NCBI GenBank assembly: GCA_041664165.1 | Contig: JBAYLH010000006.1 | Location: forward strand, 143-64,142 | Direction of reading: 5' to 3' | Source: Candidatus Buchananbacteria bacterium | Lineage (GTDB): Bacteria > Patescibacteriota > Patescibacteriia > Buchananbacterales > UBA6539 | DNA: 64,000 bases | Shown: piece after piece, positions 1 to 4,162 of the stretch | How positions within the stretch are numbered: position 1 is the stretch's first letter | How the letters are laid out: every line of letters starts with the position of its first letter | Position numbers and translations under genes: made by a program | Notes under the pieces: model-generated | What the model saw: only the letters and a program-made list of their open reading frames with translations | Database searches by the model: none | Told to the model about the DNA's origin: nothing

Positions 1-12
1 GGCTGTTCGCCA

Positions 13-56
<44 letters not shown>

Positions 57-818
57 AGACTCGTGCTGTCTATAAATTCGGCTATATGCTGGAAAATCTG
101 GAAAGCCTCAAAGGAGTGAGGCTTGAGAATCTCACACTACTTAGCTATAATAATTATAGCTAAGTAAAAAAGTGTATGAGTGCAGACAATCAGCAGGAAA
201 GGCCAAATAATCTAAGTCCATGGTATATTACCGGTTTTACTGAAGGTGAAGGAACTTTTCACGTCGCAATTTACAAAGATTTAAAAATGAAATTTGGTTT
301 GAAATTCATTCCCGAGTTTCATATTAATCAAAGTTTTTTGCGGCAGGAAACCCTATTAGAGATCAAAAAGTATTTTGGTTGTGGCTATATAAAAAGTAAC
401 CACAGGCAAAATATTAGAGACGACACTTTGGTTTATGTTGTCAGAAATAGAATTGATCTTATTAGTAGGATAATTCCATTTTTTGAAAAGTATCCATTGC
501 TTTCAGACAAAAACAGTTCATTTGTTCTATTCAAACAAATAGTTAATCTGTTAAATAGTAAAGAACATTCGACCCTGGCCGGTAGTAAAAAGATACTTAA
601 TTTAGCCTATCAAATGAATCAGCAGGGTAAGTATCGAAAAATTGATCAAAAGTTATTGTTAGATTATTTGGAATCCTCAGAGACTATACGCCGAAATCCC
701 GCATAATCGGGATAAGATATAGTCCGAACTGCATGGCGACATGCAGATTCTGATAGAAATGTCAGAGCGCCACAGAGCATTAGAAGTTAAGGATGTGGTT
801 TTGCAAAGTAACAAATTG
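57..818 (+). mobile_element. Group I intron inserted in 23S rRNA at the I-CreI-type homing site (GAGACAGT|TCGG)
   Basis: The exon junction restores GACAGT+TCGGTC. The 5' exon ends in T and the intron ends in G at 818. It contains a LAGLIDADG ORF and a perfect hairpin at 141-164. Confidence 0.8.
176..706 (+). CDS. LAGLIDADG homing endonuclease (single-motif, I-CreI-like), intron-encoded
   Basis: N-terminal WYITGFTEGEGTF matches the LAGLIDADG motif. The protein is 176 aa and lies inside the rRNA intron. Confidence 0.85.
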   Translation: MSADNQQERPNNLSPWYITGFTEGEGTFHVAIYKDLKMKFGLKFIPEFHINQSFLRQETLLEIKKYFGCGYIKSNHRQNIRDDTLVYVVRNRIDLISRIIPFFEKYPLLSDKNSSFVLFKQIVNLLNSKEHSTLAGSKKILNLAYQMNQQGKYRKIDQKLLLDYLESSETIRRNPA

Positions 819-1186
819 TCGGTCTCCTATCCACTGTGGGCGTAGAAATTTGAGGGGGCCCATCTCTAGTACGAGAGGACCGAGATGGACGAATCTCTAG
901 TGTGCCAGCTGTCCTACCAGGGGCAGAGCTGGGTAGCTACATTCGGTTTGGATAAGCGCTGAAAGCATCTAAGTGCGAAGCCGTCCCCAAGATTAGATTT
1001 CGATATTAGGTTCCCGGAAGATTACCGGGTTGATAGGTGGCAGGTGTAAGAGCAGTAATGCTTTGAGCCGAGCCATACTAATTACCGATCTATTTAACCA
1101 CAAGAATTGGGATAAAGCGTAGAAACGCTACTTGCAATTATAATAAAAATTTTCAGAAGAAGCTTTGCCCAAAGTTTGGGCGAAGT

Positions 1187-1297
1187 GCTTCTGGTGGTTT
1201 TAGCGACAGGGAAACACCTGTTCCCATCCCGAACACAGAAGTTAAGCCTGCCAGCGCCGATGATACTCTTTCAAGGGGAAAGTAGGTCACTGCCAGT
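1187..1297 (+). rRNA. rrf: 5S rRNA
   Basis: CTTCTGGTGGTT...CCCATCCCGAACACAGAAGTTAAGC...GGGAAAGTAGGTCACTGCCAG are conserved 5S blocks. Confidence 0.9.
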
Positions 1298-1305
1298 TTA
1301 ACATT

Positions 1306-1335
1306 AAGCTCCACTTTACTAAGTGGAGCTTTTTG
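1306..1335 (+). terminator. Rho-independent terminator after the rRNA operon
   Basis: agctccac-tttactaa-gtggagct hairpin followed by TTTTT. Confidence 0.7.
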
Positions 1336-1359
1336 ATTTATGGTATAATATTAAAAAAT

Positions 1360-2094
1360 ATGAAGATTATTGTCACCAAAGATTATAATGACCTTTCCGC
1401 TCAAGTGGCTGATTTGGTTATTAAGCAAATTAAGTTAAAGCCCGATTCAGTTTTGGGTCTGCCGACCGGTGGTACGCCGTTAGGGCTATATCATAATTTG
1501 ATCAAAGCTTATCAACAGGGGATTATTAGTTTCAGCCGGGTGACGACTTTTAATCTTGATGAATATTTAGGTCTGGGTTGCGGTGACAAACAAAGTTATT
1601 GCTATTTTATGTGGCATAATTTGTTTAAGGAAATTGATATTAAAAAAGAAAACGTTTTTATTCCTAACGGCTTAGTCGCCAAAGTTAAGGCCGGTAATTA
1701 CTGCCGGCAATATGAAGAGGAAATCATCAATCGAGGCGGGCTTGATTTACAAATTTTAGGCATCGGCCAAAACGGCCACTTAGGTTTTAATGAGCCGGGT
1801 TCGGCAATTGAATCCGAAATGAGAATTGTTAATTTAAGCGATAATACCATTGAGGCTAACTCTCGATTTTTTAGTAACCCTAAAATAGTTCCGACCAAAG
1901 CCATTACTTTAGGATTAGAAGCCATAATGGCAGCCAAAAAAATCATCGTTTTAGCCGCCGGCCAGCCAAAGGCCGAAGCTATCGCCAAAGCAATTTCCGG
2001 TCCGGTCAGCCAGGAATTACCGGCGTCGGTTTTACAGCAGCATAATAATGTGACTTTTGTTTTAGATCGGCCAGCGGCCAGCCAGCTTAACTAA
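1360..2094 (+). CDS. nagB: Glucosamine-6-phosphate deaminase (NagB family)
   Basis: LPTGGTPLGLY, GIGQNGHLGFNEPGS and DEYLGL motifs. Start chosen at MKIIVTK; the ORF-track start at 1333 is in frame. Confidence 0.8.
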   Translation: MKIIVTKDYNDLSAQVADLVIKQIKLKPDSVLGLPTGGTPLGLYHNLIKAYQQGIISFSRVTTFNLDEYLGLGCGDKQSYCYFMWHNLFKEIDIKKENVFIPNGLVAKVKAGNYCRQYEEEIINRGGLDLQILGIGQNGHLGFNEPGSAIESEMRIVNLSDNTIEANSRFFSNPKIVPTKAITLGLEAIMAAKKIIVLAAGQPKAEAIAKAISGPVSQELPASVLQQHNNVTFVLDRPAASQLN

Positions 2095-2154
2095 AATTTT
2101 AGACTTAGCCAAGCCTTTGTCAGAAGGTTTTTTATTTATCCACAGATTATTAGT

Positions 2155-2200
2155 CTTGACCTAGTATTTTGTATGATATAGTATGATACTATAGTAAGTA
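2155..2200 (+). promoter_or_regulatory. Putative sigma70 promoter (cttgac-N17-tagtat) overlapping the palindrome tatagtaTGAtactata (2177-2193), a candidate operator
   Basis: The -35/-10 hexamers are spaced 17 nt apart. A direct repeat gtatgata x2 and 7-bp inverted arms sit about 50 nt upstream of a gene whose N-terminus is a ribbon-helix-helix. Confidence 0.4.
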
Positions 2201-2249
2201 GCTTGCAGCTGGCAGGAAATAGGAACTTTACAAGCTATAAACCAACTCT

Positions 2250-3083
2250 ATGGACAGATCAAGACTGACAATTACGCTAAAAAAAGAGATTTTAAAGCAA
2301 CTTGATGAATATATTGATGGCGCCCGGATTCGAAACCGGTCTCACGCCATTGAGTATGTTTTAGTTAAGCAGTTTGCGCCGAAAATAAAAAAGGCCGTGA
2401 TTTTAGCCGGCGGCATCGGTTTGAAGATGCGGCCGTTTACTTATGAAATGCCGAAAGCCATGATTTTAGTTGCCGGTCGGCCGGTTTTGGAATATATCAT
2501 TGAAAATTTGCGCCGGTATGATGTGCGCGATTTGATTATTTCCATCGGTCATCAGGGAGCGAAAATTAAACAGCATTTCGGCGACGGTTCAAAATTCGGC
2601 GTCAAAATTACTTATGTCGAGCAAGGCAAATCCCAAGTCGGCACGGTGGCACCGCTTTTGCAGATTAAGAAAACGATCGGCGATAATCCTTTTATTGTTT
2701 ATTACGGTGATGTTTTGGCTAATATTGATTTTGACGACATGATTGATTTTCATTTCGGCAGTAGCGGGTTAGTGACGATGGCCTTAACTTCGGTCAATAA
2801 ATCATCGGATTGGGGAGTGGTGCGGGTTCAAGGCAGCCGGGTTTATTCATTTTTAGAAAAGCCCGATGCCAGAAAGGATTTATCCAATGTGATTAATGCC
2901 GGGATTTATATTTTTGAACCAAAGATTTTTGATTACCTTAATCCCGACTGCAAGAGATTGGAAAAAGATGTTTTTCCTAAGCTAGTTGAAGAACGGAAAA
3001 TTTTTGGCTATCTTTTTGCCGGCCAGTGGTTTGACGTGGGCAACCCCGAAATTTATAAATTAGCAGTCAAAGAATGGCGCTAA
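2250..3083 (+). CDS. Ribbon-helix-helix (CopG/NikR-like) domain fused to a sugar-phosphate nucleotidyltransferase (RmlA/ManC-like)
   Basis: N-terminal TITLKKEILKQLDEYIDGARIRNRSHAIEYVL has the RHH pattern. It is followed by AVILAGGIGLKMRPFT (the G-rich NTP-transferase loop) and a typical nucleotidyltransferase body. Confidence 0.7.
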   Translation: MDRSRLTITLKKEILKQLDEYIDGARIRNRSHAIEYVLVKQFAPKIKKAVILAGGIGLKMRPFTYEMPKAMILVAGRPVLEYIIENLRRYDVRDLIISIGHQGAKIKQHFGDGSKFGVKITYVEQGKSQVGTVAPLLQIKKTIGDNPFIVYYGDVLANIDFDDMIDFHFGSSGLVTMALTSVNKSSDWGVVRVQGSRVYSFLEKPDARKDLSNVINAGIYIFEPKIFDYLNPDCKRLEKDVFPKLVEERKIFGYLFAGQWFDVGNPEIYKLAVKEWR

Positions 3084-3154
3084 TCGCTAGCAATAAAAGA
3101 GTGAGAGTCTTTTTTTATTACTTACATTAATCAGATTTAAACTAACTCAATATT

Positions 3155-4162
3155 ATGCCAATAAAAATTGCCATTAATGGTTTTGGCCGCATGGGTCGGC
3201 TCATTTTTCGAAAGATGTTTGACGACCCGGCCGTTCAAATTGTCGCAATTAATAGTCCTTCCAGTGTTGCCTTTTATGCCCATTTGCTTAAATATGATTC
3301 CTGCTACGGGATTTGGGATAAGGACGTCAGCGCTGAAGAGACAAAATTATTAGTTGATGGAAAATCAATTCCTTTGTATTGCCACCTGACGCCGCTGAAT
3401 TGCCCCTGGCGAGAGCTGGAAGTTGACATTGTCATTGAATCAACCGGCGTTTTTCGAAGCCGAGCCGATTCGGAATTGCACCTTAAAGCCGGCGCCAAGC
3501 GCATTATCATTACAGCGCCGGCCAAAGACGAGGATATCACACTGGTGCCGGGCGTCAATTTGGACGCTTTTGATCCGGCCAGTCATGTTATAATTTCTTC
3601 CGCTTCCTGCACTTCAAATTGCCTGGCGCCGATAATCAAAACCATCCAGCCGGCCTTGAAAATCAAGCACGGCTATATGGTTACGGTGCACGCCTATACT
3701 AATGATCAGCATCTAGTCGATGCGCCGCACAAAAAAGAAGATTTTCGGCGGGCGCGGGCGGCGACCGAATCCATTATTCCAACCGACACCGGCGCGACCA
3801 AAACGATCGGCAAGCTGATTCCGGAATTAGCCGGCCGGCTTTCTGGCATCGCCATGCGCGTACCGGTAGTTTTGCCTTCGGTGATCAATTTGGCTTTGGA
3901 AGTAGAAAAATCGACCACCGCCGAAGCGGTCAATAAAATCTTAAAAGACGCGGCCATGGGCGAACTTAAAGGCATTATGGATTTTTCCACGCTGCCGCTA
4001 GTATCGGTTGACTATCGCGGCAATCCCTGCGCTTCCATCATTGACGGCCTGCTGACGGAAGTGGTGGACGAAACCATGGTCAATATTGTTTCCTGGTATG
4101 ACAATGAATGGGGTTACATCAATCAGCTATCGCGGGTGATTAAGCATGTTGGTAAAAATTAA
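3155..4162 (+). CDS. gap: Glyceraldehyde-3-phosphate dehydrogenase, type I
   Basis: INGFGRMGR Rossmann motif, the SCTSNCLAP catalytic cysteine motif, and WYDNEWGY at the C-terminus. Confidence 0.9.
   Translation: MPIKIAINGFGRMGRLIFRKMFDDPAVQIVAINSPSSVAFYAHLLKYDSCYGIWDKDVSAEETKLLVDGKSIPLYCHLTPLNCPWRELEVDIVIESTGVFRSRADSELHLKAGAKRIIITAPAKDEDITLVPGVNLDAFDPASHVIISSASCTSNCLAPIIKTIQPALKIKHGYMVTVHAYTNDQHLVDAPHKKEDFRRARAATESIIPTDTGATKTIGKLIPELAGRLSGIAMRVPVVLPSVINLALEVEKSTTAEAVNKILKDAAMGELKGIMDFSTLPLVSVDYRGNPCASIIDGLLTEVVDETMVNIVSWYDNEWGYINQLSRVIKHVGKN

Follow-up and report, generated by a model that had tools for sequence, protein, structure and literature searches.

What interrupts the 23S rRNA gene that opens the 64,000-nt stretch of DNA analysed here (the window), and is the interruption a mobile intron of the I-CreI type, as a sequence-only reading had proposed? 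Our best explanation, in which we have high confidence, is that positions 57-818 are a group I intron inserted between U2604 and U2605 of 23S rRNA (E. coli numbering), with a single-domain LAGLIDADG gene in its P6 loop and a host probably of the CPR/Patescibacteria type; we infer that the element splices and homes.

Sites were numbered by aligning the flanks, joined to each other, with rrlH of E. coli K-12 (locus L001). The sequence-only reading had placed the insertion at 57-818 with an exon junction of GAGACAGT/TCGG (a slash marks the insertion point throughout), and the alignment shows both to be exact. Window positions 1-56 match E. coli 23S positions 2549-2604, and positions 819 onward match 2605 onward; joined, 1-56 and 819-1088 restore an uninterrupted 23S rRNA 3' end. 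An ENA contig that contains the window and reaches 298 nt farther upstream (ERZ27249449 k141_1347139) has exons colinear with rrlH positions 2253-2604 and 2605-2782 without a gap. Because the exons are colinear and no nucleotide is lost, 57-818 is a clean insertion. Its boundaries are unambiguous (first nucleotide A57, last nucleotide G818, splice junctions ...GACAGU/A...G/UCGG), and its GC content is 34.8%, versus 43.9% for the window. The features of the locus are as follows.

1-56, plus strand: 23S rRNA 5' exon, E. coli 2549-2604; 50-56 (AGACAGU) is the exon strand of P1.
57-818, plus strand: group I intron of 762 nt at L2604, identified by exon alignment, helices and terminal G.
819-1088, plus strand: 23S rRNA 3' exon, E. 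coli 2605 to about 2900.
1190-1298, plus strand: 5S rRNA (Rfam), followed by a terminator-like hairpin at 1306-1331.

The insertion position thus lies between E. coli U2604 and U2605, in 23S domain V and adjoining the peptidyl-transferase centre. This is not the I-CreI-type homing site to which the insertion had been assigned: the I-CreI site, 2593/2594, is 11 nt upstream. A 762-nt intron at this place breaks 23S gene calls. Rfam finds the bacterial LSU model (LSU_rRNA_bacteria 2656-2912) only from 844, at 844-1088, and in CPR bacteria such an intron also affects the mapping of reads and rRNA surveys that rely on primers.

Is the insert a group I ribozyme? At its gathering threshold, Rfam calls no intron in the window. 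Run on the insert, the Intron_gpI model (RF00028) reaches 36.6 bits (E = 1.8e-7), short of its gathering score, which is 50. In the resulting alignment the R and S elements are near-perfect and P8 and P9 are present, which makes the 3' half convincing; the 5' half is misaligned, having been wrongly forced into the ORF, and the ~440-nt ORF in P6 splits the model. A homologous intron (locus L036), searched alone against the same model, scores similarly (34.6 bits against the same gathering score). The Rfam test is equivocal by itself, and group I identity is settled by covariation. We fetched homologous loci from species-representative genomes, starting from an alignment of protein homologs, aligned 37 homologous introns with the ORF centre removed, and tested a hand-built structure by covariation. 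Across 57 pairs and the 37 introns, pairing is kept in 93.8% of cells; shifting the 3' partners by 1-3 columns lowers this to 28-39%. Changes on both sides are seen in 26 pairs, a value reached in 0/500 shuffles, and compensatory changes occur in P3, P5, P6, P6a, P7 and P9. The assignment to group I, in 23S domain V, is therefore borne out. The elements of the ribozyme are listed below.

50-56 (exon) with 65-71 (guide, GCUGUCU), plus strand: P1, 7/7 pairs in 37/37 introns, with a U56.G65 wobble at the 5' splice site.
57-63 (AGAC-CG) with 820-825, plus strand: P10, in which 57-60 and 62-63 pair; 75-80% of cells paired, consensus GACCG/CGGUC.
77-82 (UUCGGC) with 690-695 (GCCGAA), plus strand: P3, 99-100% paired, 5/6 pairs changed on both sides.
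87-195, plus strand: P4-P5 domain, containing P4, P5 and a three-way extension made of P5a, P5b and P5c.
87-92 with 190-195, plus strand: P4, 100% paired.
97-100 with 183-186, plus strand: P5, 98% paired.
105-110 with 117-122, plus strand: P5a hairpin.
131-137 with 172-180, plus strand: P5b, 97.7% paired, 5/7 pairs covary.
139-150 with 154-165, plus strand: P5c hairpin.
196-198 with 674-676, plus strand: P6, 100% paired, the third pair changing from A-U to G-C in 11 sequences.
203-211 with 663-671, plus strand: P6a, 9/9 pairs covary.
659-676, plus strand: 3' strands of P6a and P6, within C-terminal ORF codons.
682-724, plus strand: 3' half of the catalytic core, with P7, P3', P8, J8/7 (AUAAGA) and canonical R (UCAGAGACUAUA) and S (AAGAUAUAGUCC) elements.
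682-688 with 718-724, plus strand: P7, 97.7% paired.
696-701 with 708-713, plus strand: P8, a hairpin in 38/38 sequences despite almost no sequence conservation.
729-735 with 740-746, plus strand: P9 hairpin with a GCGA tetraloop, 100% paired, 6/7 pairs covary.
749-755 with 760-766, plus strand: P9.1 with a GAAA tetraloop, from a single-sequence fold and visible in homologs.
767-774 with 794-804, plus strand: P9.2, from a single-sequence fold and visible in homologs.
818, plus strand: terminal G (omega-G), a G at the end of all 38 homologous introns.

Within the conserved P3-P9 core, P3 and P7 form the pseudoknot. Single-sequence folds give the same helices (z = -5.06 for 87-195 and z = -2.96 for 725-818). 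Since the exon does not vary, no covariation is possible in P1 and P10; P10 of the window intron requires a bulged U, and P9.0 is weak, with 72% of cells paired among the homologs. Directly in the window sequence, 203-215 and 659-671 can be read as a longer P6a of 13 perfect pairs; it draws the two ends of the ORF together, and with P6 it closes the ~440-nt ORF loop. Two peripheral elements are absent from the window intron. First, there is no P2 between P1 and P3; in some relatives P2-like hairpins are present, or the P1 loop contains a hairpin. Second, no sequence stands between P3' and P8, which leaves no P7.1/P7.2, extra helices that are typical of subgroup IA. A conserved GUAACA near the 3' end (809-814) was searched for a pairing partner and yielded none. 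A small hairpin considered at 124-134 (UGAGAAUCUCA) was rejected: its pairs show no covariation, and 131-137 instead form P5b with 172-180.

From these elements a conventional splicing pathway can be proposed. The exon AGACAGU would pair with the intron guide GCUGUCU to form P1, with the U.G pair at the splice site, and an exogenous G held in P7 would attack after U56. P10 would then align the 3' exon, G818 would enter the G site, and ligation of the exons would restore 23S rRNA. Guanosine-dependent self-splicing is thus a prediction from sequence.

The insert also encodes a protein, which the sequence-only reading had described as an intact single-motif LAGLIDADG endonuclease containing WYITGFTEGEGTF.

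176-706, plus strand: homing endonuclease ORF of 176 aa with a single LAGLIDADG_1 domain; AUG in the P5b 3' strand, stop in the P8 loop.

That description holds: Pfam finds a single LAGLIDADG_1 match (PF00961, residues 18-123, 7.5e-23, 81.8 bits versus a cutoff of 23.1). The endonuclease motif reads YITGFTEGEG, and E25 and Q52 align with the catalytic D20 and with Q47 of I-CreI, respectively. Among 23 homologs no variation is seen at G24-E25-G26, Q52 and K112. Full length and with its catalytic residues conserved, the enzyme looks intact. Its best PDB sequence matches are to each half of the monomeric I-OnuI-family enzymes (down to 1e-38), followed by the single-domain I-TnaI, I-Vdi141I and I-CeuI. 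I-CreI, whose query sequence we checked against PDB, is not among the best 60 PDB sequence matches; compared pairwise, it is 25% identical over 114 aa (BLASTP E = 1e-6). An AlphaFold2 (AF2) model has a pLDDT of 86.7 and an alpha-beta-beta-alpha-beta-beta-alpha core fold (H15-25, E26-34, E42-53, H54-67, E71-74, E84-89, H92-105). With this model, Foldseek returns I-TnaI and I-Vdi141I as the best matches (TM 0.88-0.93, with 0.89 for I-TnaI and 0.88 for I-Vdi141I; 32-34% identity, probability 1.00). Judged by sequence and predicted fold, the closest solved relatives are I-TnaI, I-Vdi141I and the half-domains of the I-OnuI family, and the endonuclease is not I-CreI-like.

The ORF had been placed in a peripheral loop of the intron. 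The P6 loop does hold most of the coding sequence, but both ends of the ORF run through core helices. The ORF starts inside P5b, passes through P5', P4', P6 and P6a, leaves the loop through P6a', P6', P7 and P3', and stops in the P8 loop. About 13 codons at its start and about 17 at its end double as ribozyme core. Codons 2-9 (SADNQQER) are P5', J5/4, P4' and P6, and codons 10-14 are P6a; at the other end, the codons of P6a' are followed by ESSETIRR, which is P6', J6/7, P7 and P3'. Both ends of the peptide are invariant in the protein alignment yet modelled as disordered (AF2 pLDDT <50 at residues 1-8 and 173-176), which argues that their conservation is driven by the RNA. ORFs that overlap group I core sequence have been described before (Hausner et al. 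2014, PMC3984707).

How widespread is the element, and does it move? The expectation that such insertions recur in uncultured lineages proved right, the lineages here being CPR: about 40 species-level genomes carry a homologous intron and homing endonuclease (HE) at exactly 2604/2605, and most of their ORFs are intact too. The HE clade tracks the site, with identity of at least 45% at 2604 and of 34-41% at 1917, 1931 and 1951. The nearest HE homologs and loci bear the names Falkowbacteria, Buchananbacteria, Magasanikbacteria, Kerfeldbacteria and Patescibacteria group, which suggests a CPR/Patescibacteria-type bacterium as the host. Separate insertions at L2593 occur in eight loci (L011, L027, L037, L054, L055, L058, L065 and L069). 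Three of these (L011, L027 and L037) have introns at both 2593 and 2604, with the 11-nt exon CGTGAGACAGT between; one and the same bacterial group uses both sites, each independently of the other.

Intron-less alleles, which the sequence-only reading had proposed to seek, are present as well. Intron-less 2604 junctions are found in other CPR lineages and also within groups that contain carriers (Uhrbacteria and Magasanikbacteria). An exact 40-nt joined-exon query retrieved four metagenome contigs, three of which share the gene order of the window (23S, 5S, NTP-transferase gene) at 70-89% nucleotide identity and lack the intron; these syntenic intron-less relatives are among loci L083-L086. In the joined exons, the best local dyad axis falls exactly at the insertion point (GAGACAGT/TCGGTCTC, 6/8). 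This fits a homodimeric enzyme, although the dyad is weak evidence for a homodimer target because it mirrors an rRNA helix. In the proposed homing cycle, a protein dimer would cut intron-less 23S rDNA near this pseudo-palindrome, and repair from an intron-bearing copy would spread the intron. Dimerisation, cleavage of the intron-less site and homing are suggested by the single domain, the dyad axis and the precedent of I-ShaI, a CPR single-domain enzyme of site 1931 that dimerises and cuts its own insertion site according to the CPR rRNA survey of Tsurumaki et al. 2024 (J Bacteriol 206:e00074-24; PMC11270868). We infer current mobility in the same way. The nearest homolog found is 86-87% identical in protein sequence, which gives no direct indication of a recent transfer.

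The most serious competing explanation, which we nevertheless consider unlikely, accepts a real intron but holds that it is now fixed and vertically inherited, its protein acting mainly as a splicing helper (maturase) and not as an active nuclease. In its favour, the ribozyme has no P2, and loss of the ORF would harm the ribozyme because the two are physically interwoven. It also suits this explanation that distant hosts yielded no near-identical copies, the best match being the homolog of 86-87% amino-acid identity. However, E25, Q52 and K112 are invariant. Catalytic residues are often lost in LAGLIDADG proteins that are maturases only. The patchy presence and absence within phylum-level groups, and among syntenic relatives, speaks against fixation too. 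LAGLIDADG maturases are known, and Tsurumaki et al. (PMC11270868) mention them, but the same paper describes the related CPR enzyme I-ShaI as an active nuclease.

It is far less probable still that the insert is a decayed or non-catalytic intervening sequence, cut out by RNase III-type processing to leave a fragmented 23S and a relic ORF. All core helices are intact and are maintained by compensatory changes across the 37 sequences; the U.G pair, the terminal G and the R and S elements are conserved; and the ORF is full-length with its catalytic residues, as it is in most homologs. The Rfam score under gathering would suit such a relic, and intervening sequences are known in bacterial 23S genes, many short non-intron CPR 23S insertions being noted by Tsurumaki et al. 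(PMC11270868), but the known sites of intervening sequences (23IS2 and 23IS4) lie elsewhere. Least credible of all, and refuted by the site numbering, is the original assignment to an I-CreI-type intron at L2593 with an I-CreI-family enzyme, for although the 22-bp I-CreI recognition sequence overlaps the same 23S stretch and both proteins are single-domain LAGLIDADG_1 enzymes detectable by BLASTP, the E. coli alignment is not shifted by 11 nt, true L2593 introns co-occur with L2604 introns across the 11-nt exon, and the I-OnuI-family halves match far better than I-CreI does.

A group I intron at L2604 with its own endonuclease clade can be set beside several known systems. One is the Chlamydomonas reinhardtii chloroplast intron Cr.LSU with I-CreI (L2593), which likewise belongs to group I, interrupts 23S domain V and encodes a single-motif LAGLIDADG enzyme in its P6 loop. 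I-CreI is homodimeric and has a pseudo-palindromic target in the same rRNA stretch, as the window protein is suggested to have. The two differ in that Cr.LSU is inserted 11 nt upstream and the proteins share only 25% identity. In addition, Cr.LSU is a subgroup IA3 intron with P7.1/P7.2-type extras, which the window intron lacks. The distinction between sites 2604 and 2593 matters for the comparison of homing sites and for the mining of meganuclease specificities, since the L2604 enzyme clade would recognise another 23S target (around GAGACAGT/TCGGTCTC) than I-CreI. Like the window protein, Thermotoga 23S I-TnaI (PDB 5GKK) and archaeal I-Vdi141I (PDB 3E54) are single-domain enzymes encoded by rRNA introns; their insertion sites and hosts are others, and the intron of I-Vdi141I is of the archaeal type and not of group I.

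Within CPR bacteria, the intron of I-ShaI (Ca. Shapirobacteria 23S, 23IS7 in PMC11270868) is likewise group-I-like and encodes a single-domain LAGLIDADG_1 protein, but its site is 1931 and its enzyme belongs to another HE clade, the 1931, 1951 and 1917 enzymes being those 34-41% identical to the window protein. Tsurumaki et al. (PMC11270868) class 23IS6-14 as group-I-like, state that sites -9, -10, -11, -13 and -14 were unreported in other bacteria, and list 23S 2604 among the sites that concentrate LAGLIDADG_1 ORFs. Hence, the window element is an instance of a class already described there. It resembles their 23IS13 in site (position 2604), in its single-domain LAGLIDADG_1 ORF of about 180 aa, in being group-I-like by Rfam and in belonging to the same radiation. 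Their account of 23IS13 is at catalogue level (Rfam hit, Pfam domain and position), and in the main text of PMC11270868 we found neither a secondary structure of the 2604 class nor mention of its ORF/core overlap, of the P6a helix that closes the loop or of expression signals. In the literature that we searched, the term 'L2604' does not occur, and for 2604 combined with group I intron only Tsurumaki et al. 2024 was relevant. The window element is a sound but ordinary example of a class catalogued in 2024 (PMC11270868). To the catalogue-level description it adds a covariation-backed structure, a coding sequence that doubles as core and a possible internal promoter; the general picture of 2015-2024, of CPR rRNA genes full of mobile introns, is unchanged.

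The possible promoter lies in the P5a-P5c region.

123-151, plus strand: putative sigma70-like promoter match, TTGAGA-17 nt-TATAAT (11/12), 24 nt upstream of the ORF start.

In a promoter scan this match was the best in the region, and weaker matches were at chance level in number. At the homologous place in 37 introns, an exact TATAAT is present in 18/37 and an extended -10 TG in 25/37, the -35 is mostly TTGAnn, and many homologs read TGnTATAAT. In about 20 introns an in-frame ATG follows the -10 by 6-12 nt, versus 24 nt in the window; a spacing of 6-12 nt is that expected of leaderless mRNAs. No Shine-Dalgarno sequence is recognisable before the ORF of the window or those of the L2604 family, and the AUG of the window ORF is base-paired in P5b. 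Several HE lineages at other 23S sites do have a GGAG-type site but lack a -10. Nor do CPR intron ORFs at other 23S sites generally carry a -10-like box close to the ATG (5/34, against a background of 7.5%), so the promoter idea rests on the L2604 family together with loci L046, L048 and L070, in the last of which TGGTATAAT precedes the ATG by 6 nt at a different structural position.

These observations lead us to a tentative hypothesis, that the L2604 intron family may carry its own sigma70-type promoter in the P5a-P5c extension. We hold it to be possible but rather doubtful, because all members have also inherited this stretch as a conserved RNA hairpin. An intron-internal promoter drives transcription of the ORF in the phage T4 introns td, nrdB and sunY (I-TevI and others), where the start codon is otherwise sequestered in the ribozyme. 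The window intron would resemble these only if its promoter match is real. The T4 introns differ in carrying GIY-YIG or HNH enzymes, in residing in protein-coding genes and in using phage promoters, the window promoter being a sequence match only. If the hypothesis is correct, the endonuclease would have an mRNA of its own, often leaderless and without the 5' half of the ribozyme; the AUG would be freed from P5b, and expression of the enzyme would be uncoupled from both rRNA transcription and ribozyme folding.

In the comparison loci L002-L072, CPR 23S rRNA genes are interrupted at many sites, and several interruptions per gene are often found. Besides U2604/U2605 (L2604, E. coli numbering), the recurrent positions are about 1917, 1931, 1951, 2257-2263, 2450, 2500, 2532, 2593, and ~2650. 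L2604 is the sole interruption of the window's own 23S from 2253 to the gene end. In three relatives, an intron at L2593, the I-CreI-type site, and one at L2604 lie back to back, separated by the 11-nt exon CGTGAGACAGT:

L011, 2611-2862: L2593 and L2604 intron pair
L027, 55-831: L2593 and L2604 intron pair
L037, 2656-2875: L2593 and L2604 intron pair

The P3-P4-P5-P5b sequence (…AUGCUGGAAnnUCUG…GUAUC…CUAC…) is common to the L2604 family and to introns located elsewhere in 23S (1931/1917 region), namely those in L046 (~2920-2970), L048 (~715-765), L059, L062, and L064. The TGGTATAAT box of the L2604 family is also present in the L046 and L048 introns. Together, these shared sequences suggest a single ribozyme lineage that moved between 23S sites.

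Near the 3' end, most of the 37 aligned L2604 introns keep a GUAACA motif (window 809-814), 4-9 nt upstream of the 3' splice junction, with its central AACA present in at least 90% of rows. We found no pairing partner for GUAACA, either at 809-814 or at the same position in homologs. Lineage-specific insertions, each adding 50-90 nt of hairpins, occur at peripheral positions of otherwise homologous introns:

L019: in P8
L009 and L041: following the 5' strand of P3
L012, L028, and L035: in the P1 loop

The P5 extension, 5' of the endonuclease ORF, contains a near-consensus match to a sigma70 promoter (TTGAGA-17-TATAAT, window 123-151). This putative promoter is conserved in the L2604 family, at homologous positions in L002-L043, frequently as TGnTATAAT; the ATG then follows 6-12 nt downstream, a leaderless-like arrangement. 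The endonuclease ORF has no recognisable Shine-Dalgarno sequence in the window, nor do its counterparts in L002-L043.

Compared with window 1-3400, the syntenic, intron-less metagenome contigs L083-L086 also lack one gene:

1333-2094: glucosamine-6-phosphate isomerase-like gene, between 5S and the NTP-transferase gene

Many loci with a CPR-like 23S and an L2604 intron are titled "uncultured Gammaproteobacteria," one "Nanoarchaeia," and one "Bacilli" (such titles occur on L002, L008, L009, L012, L017, L018, L053, and others); the names are probably placeholders or stem from mis-binning.
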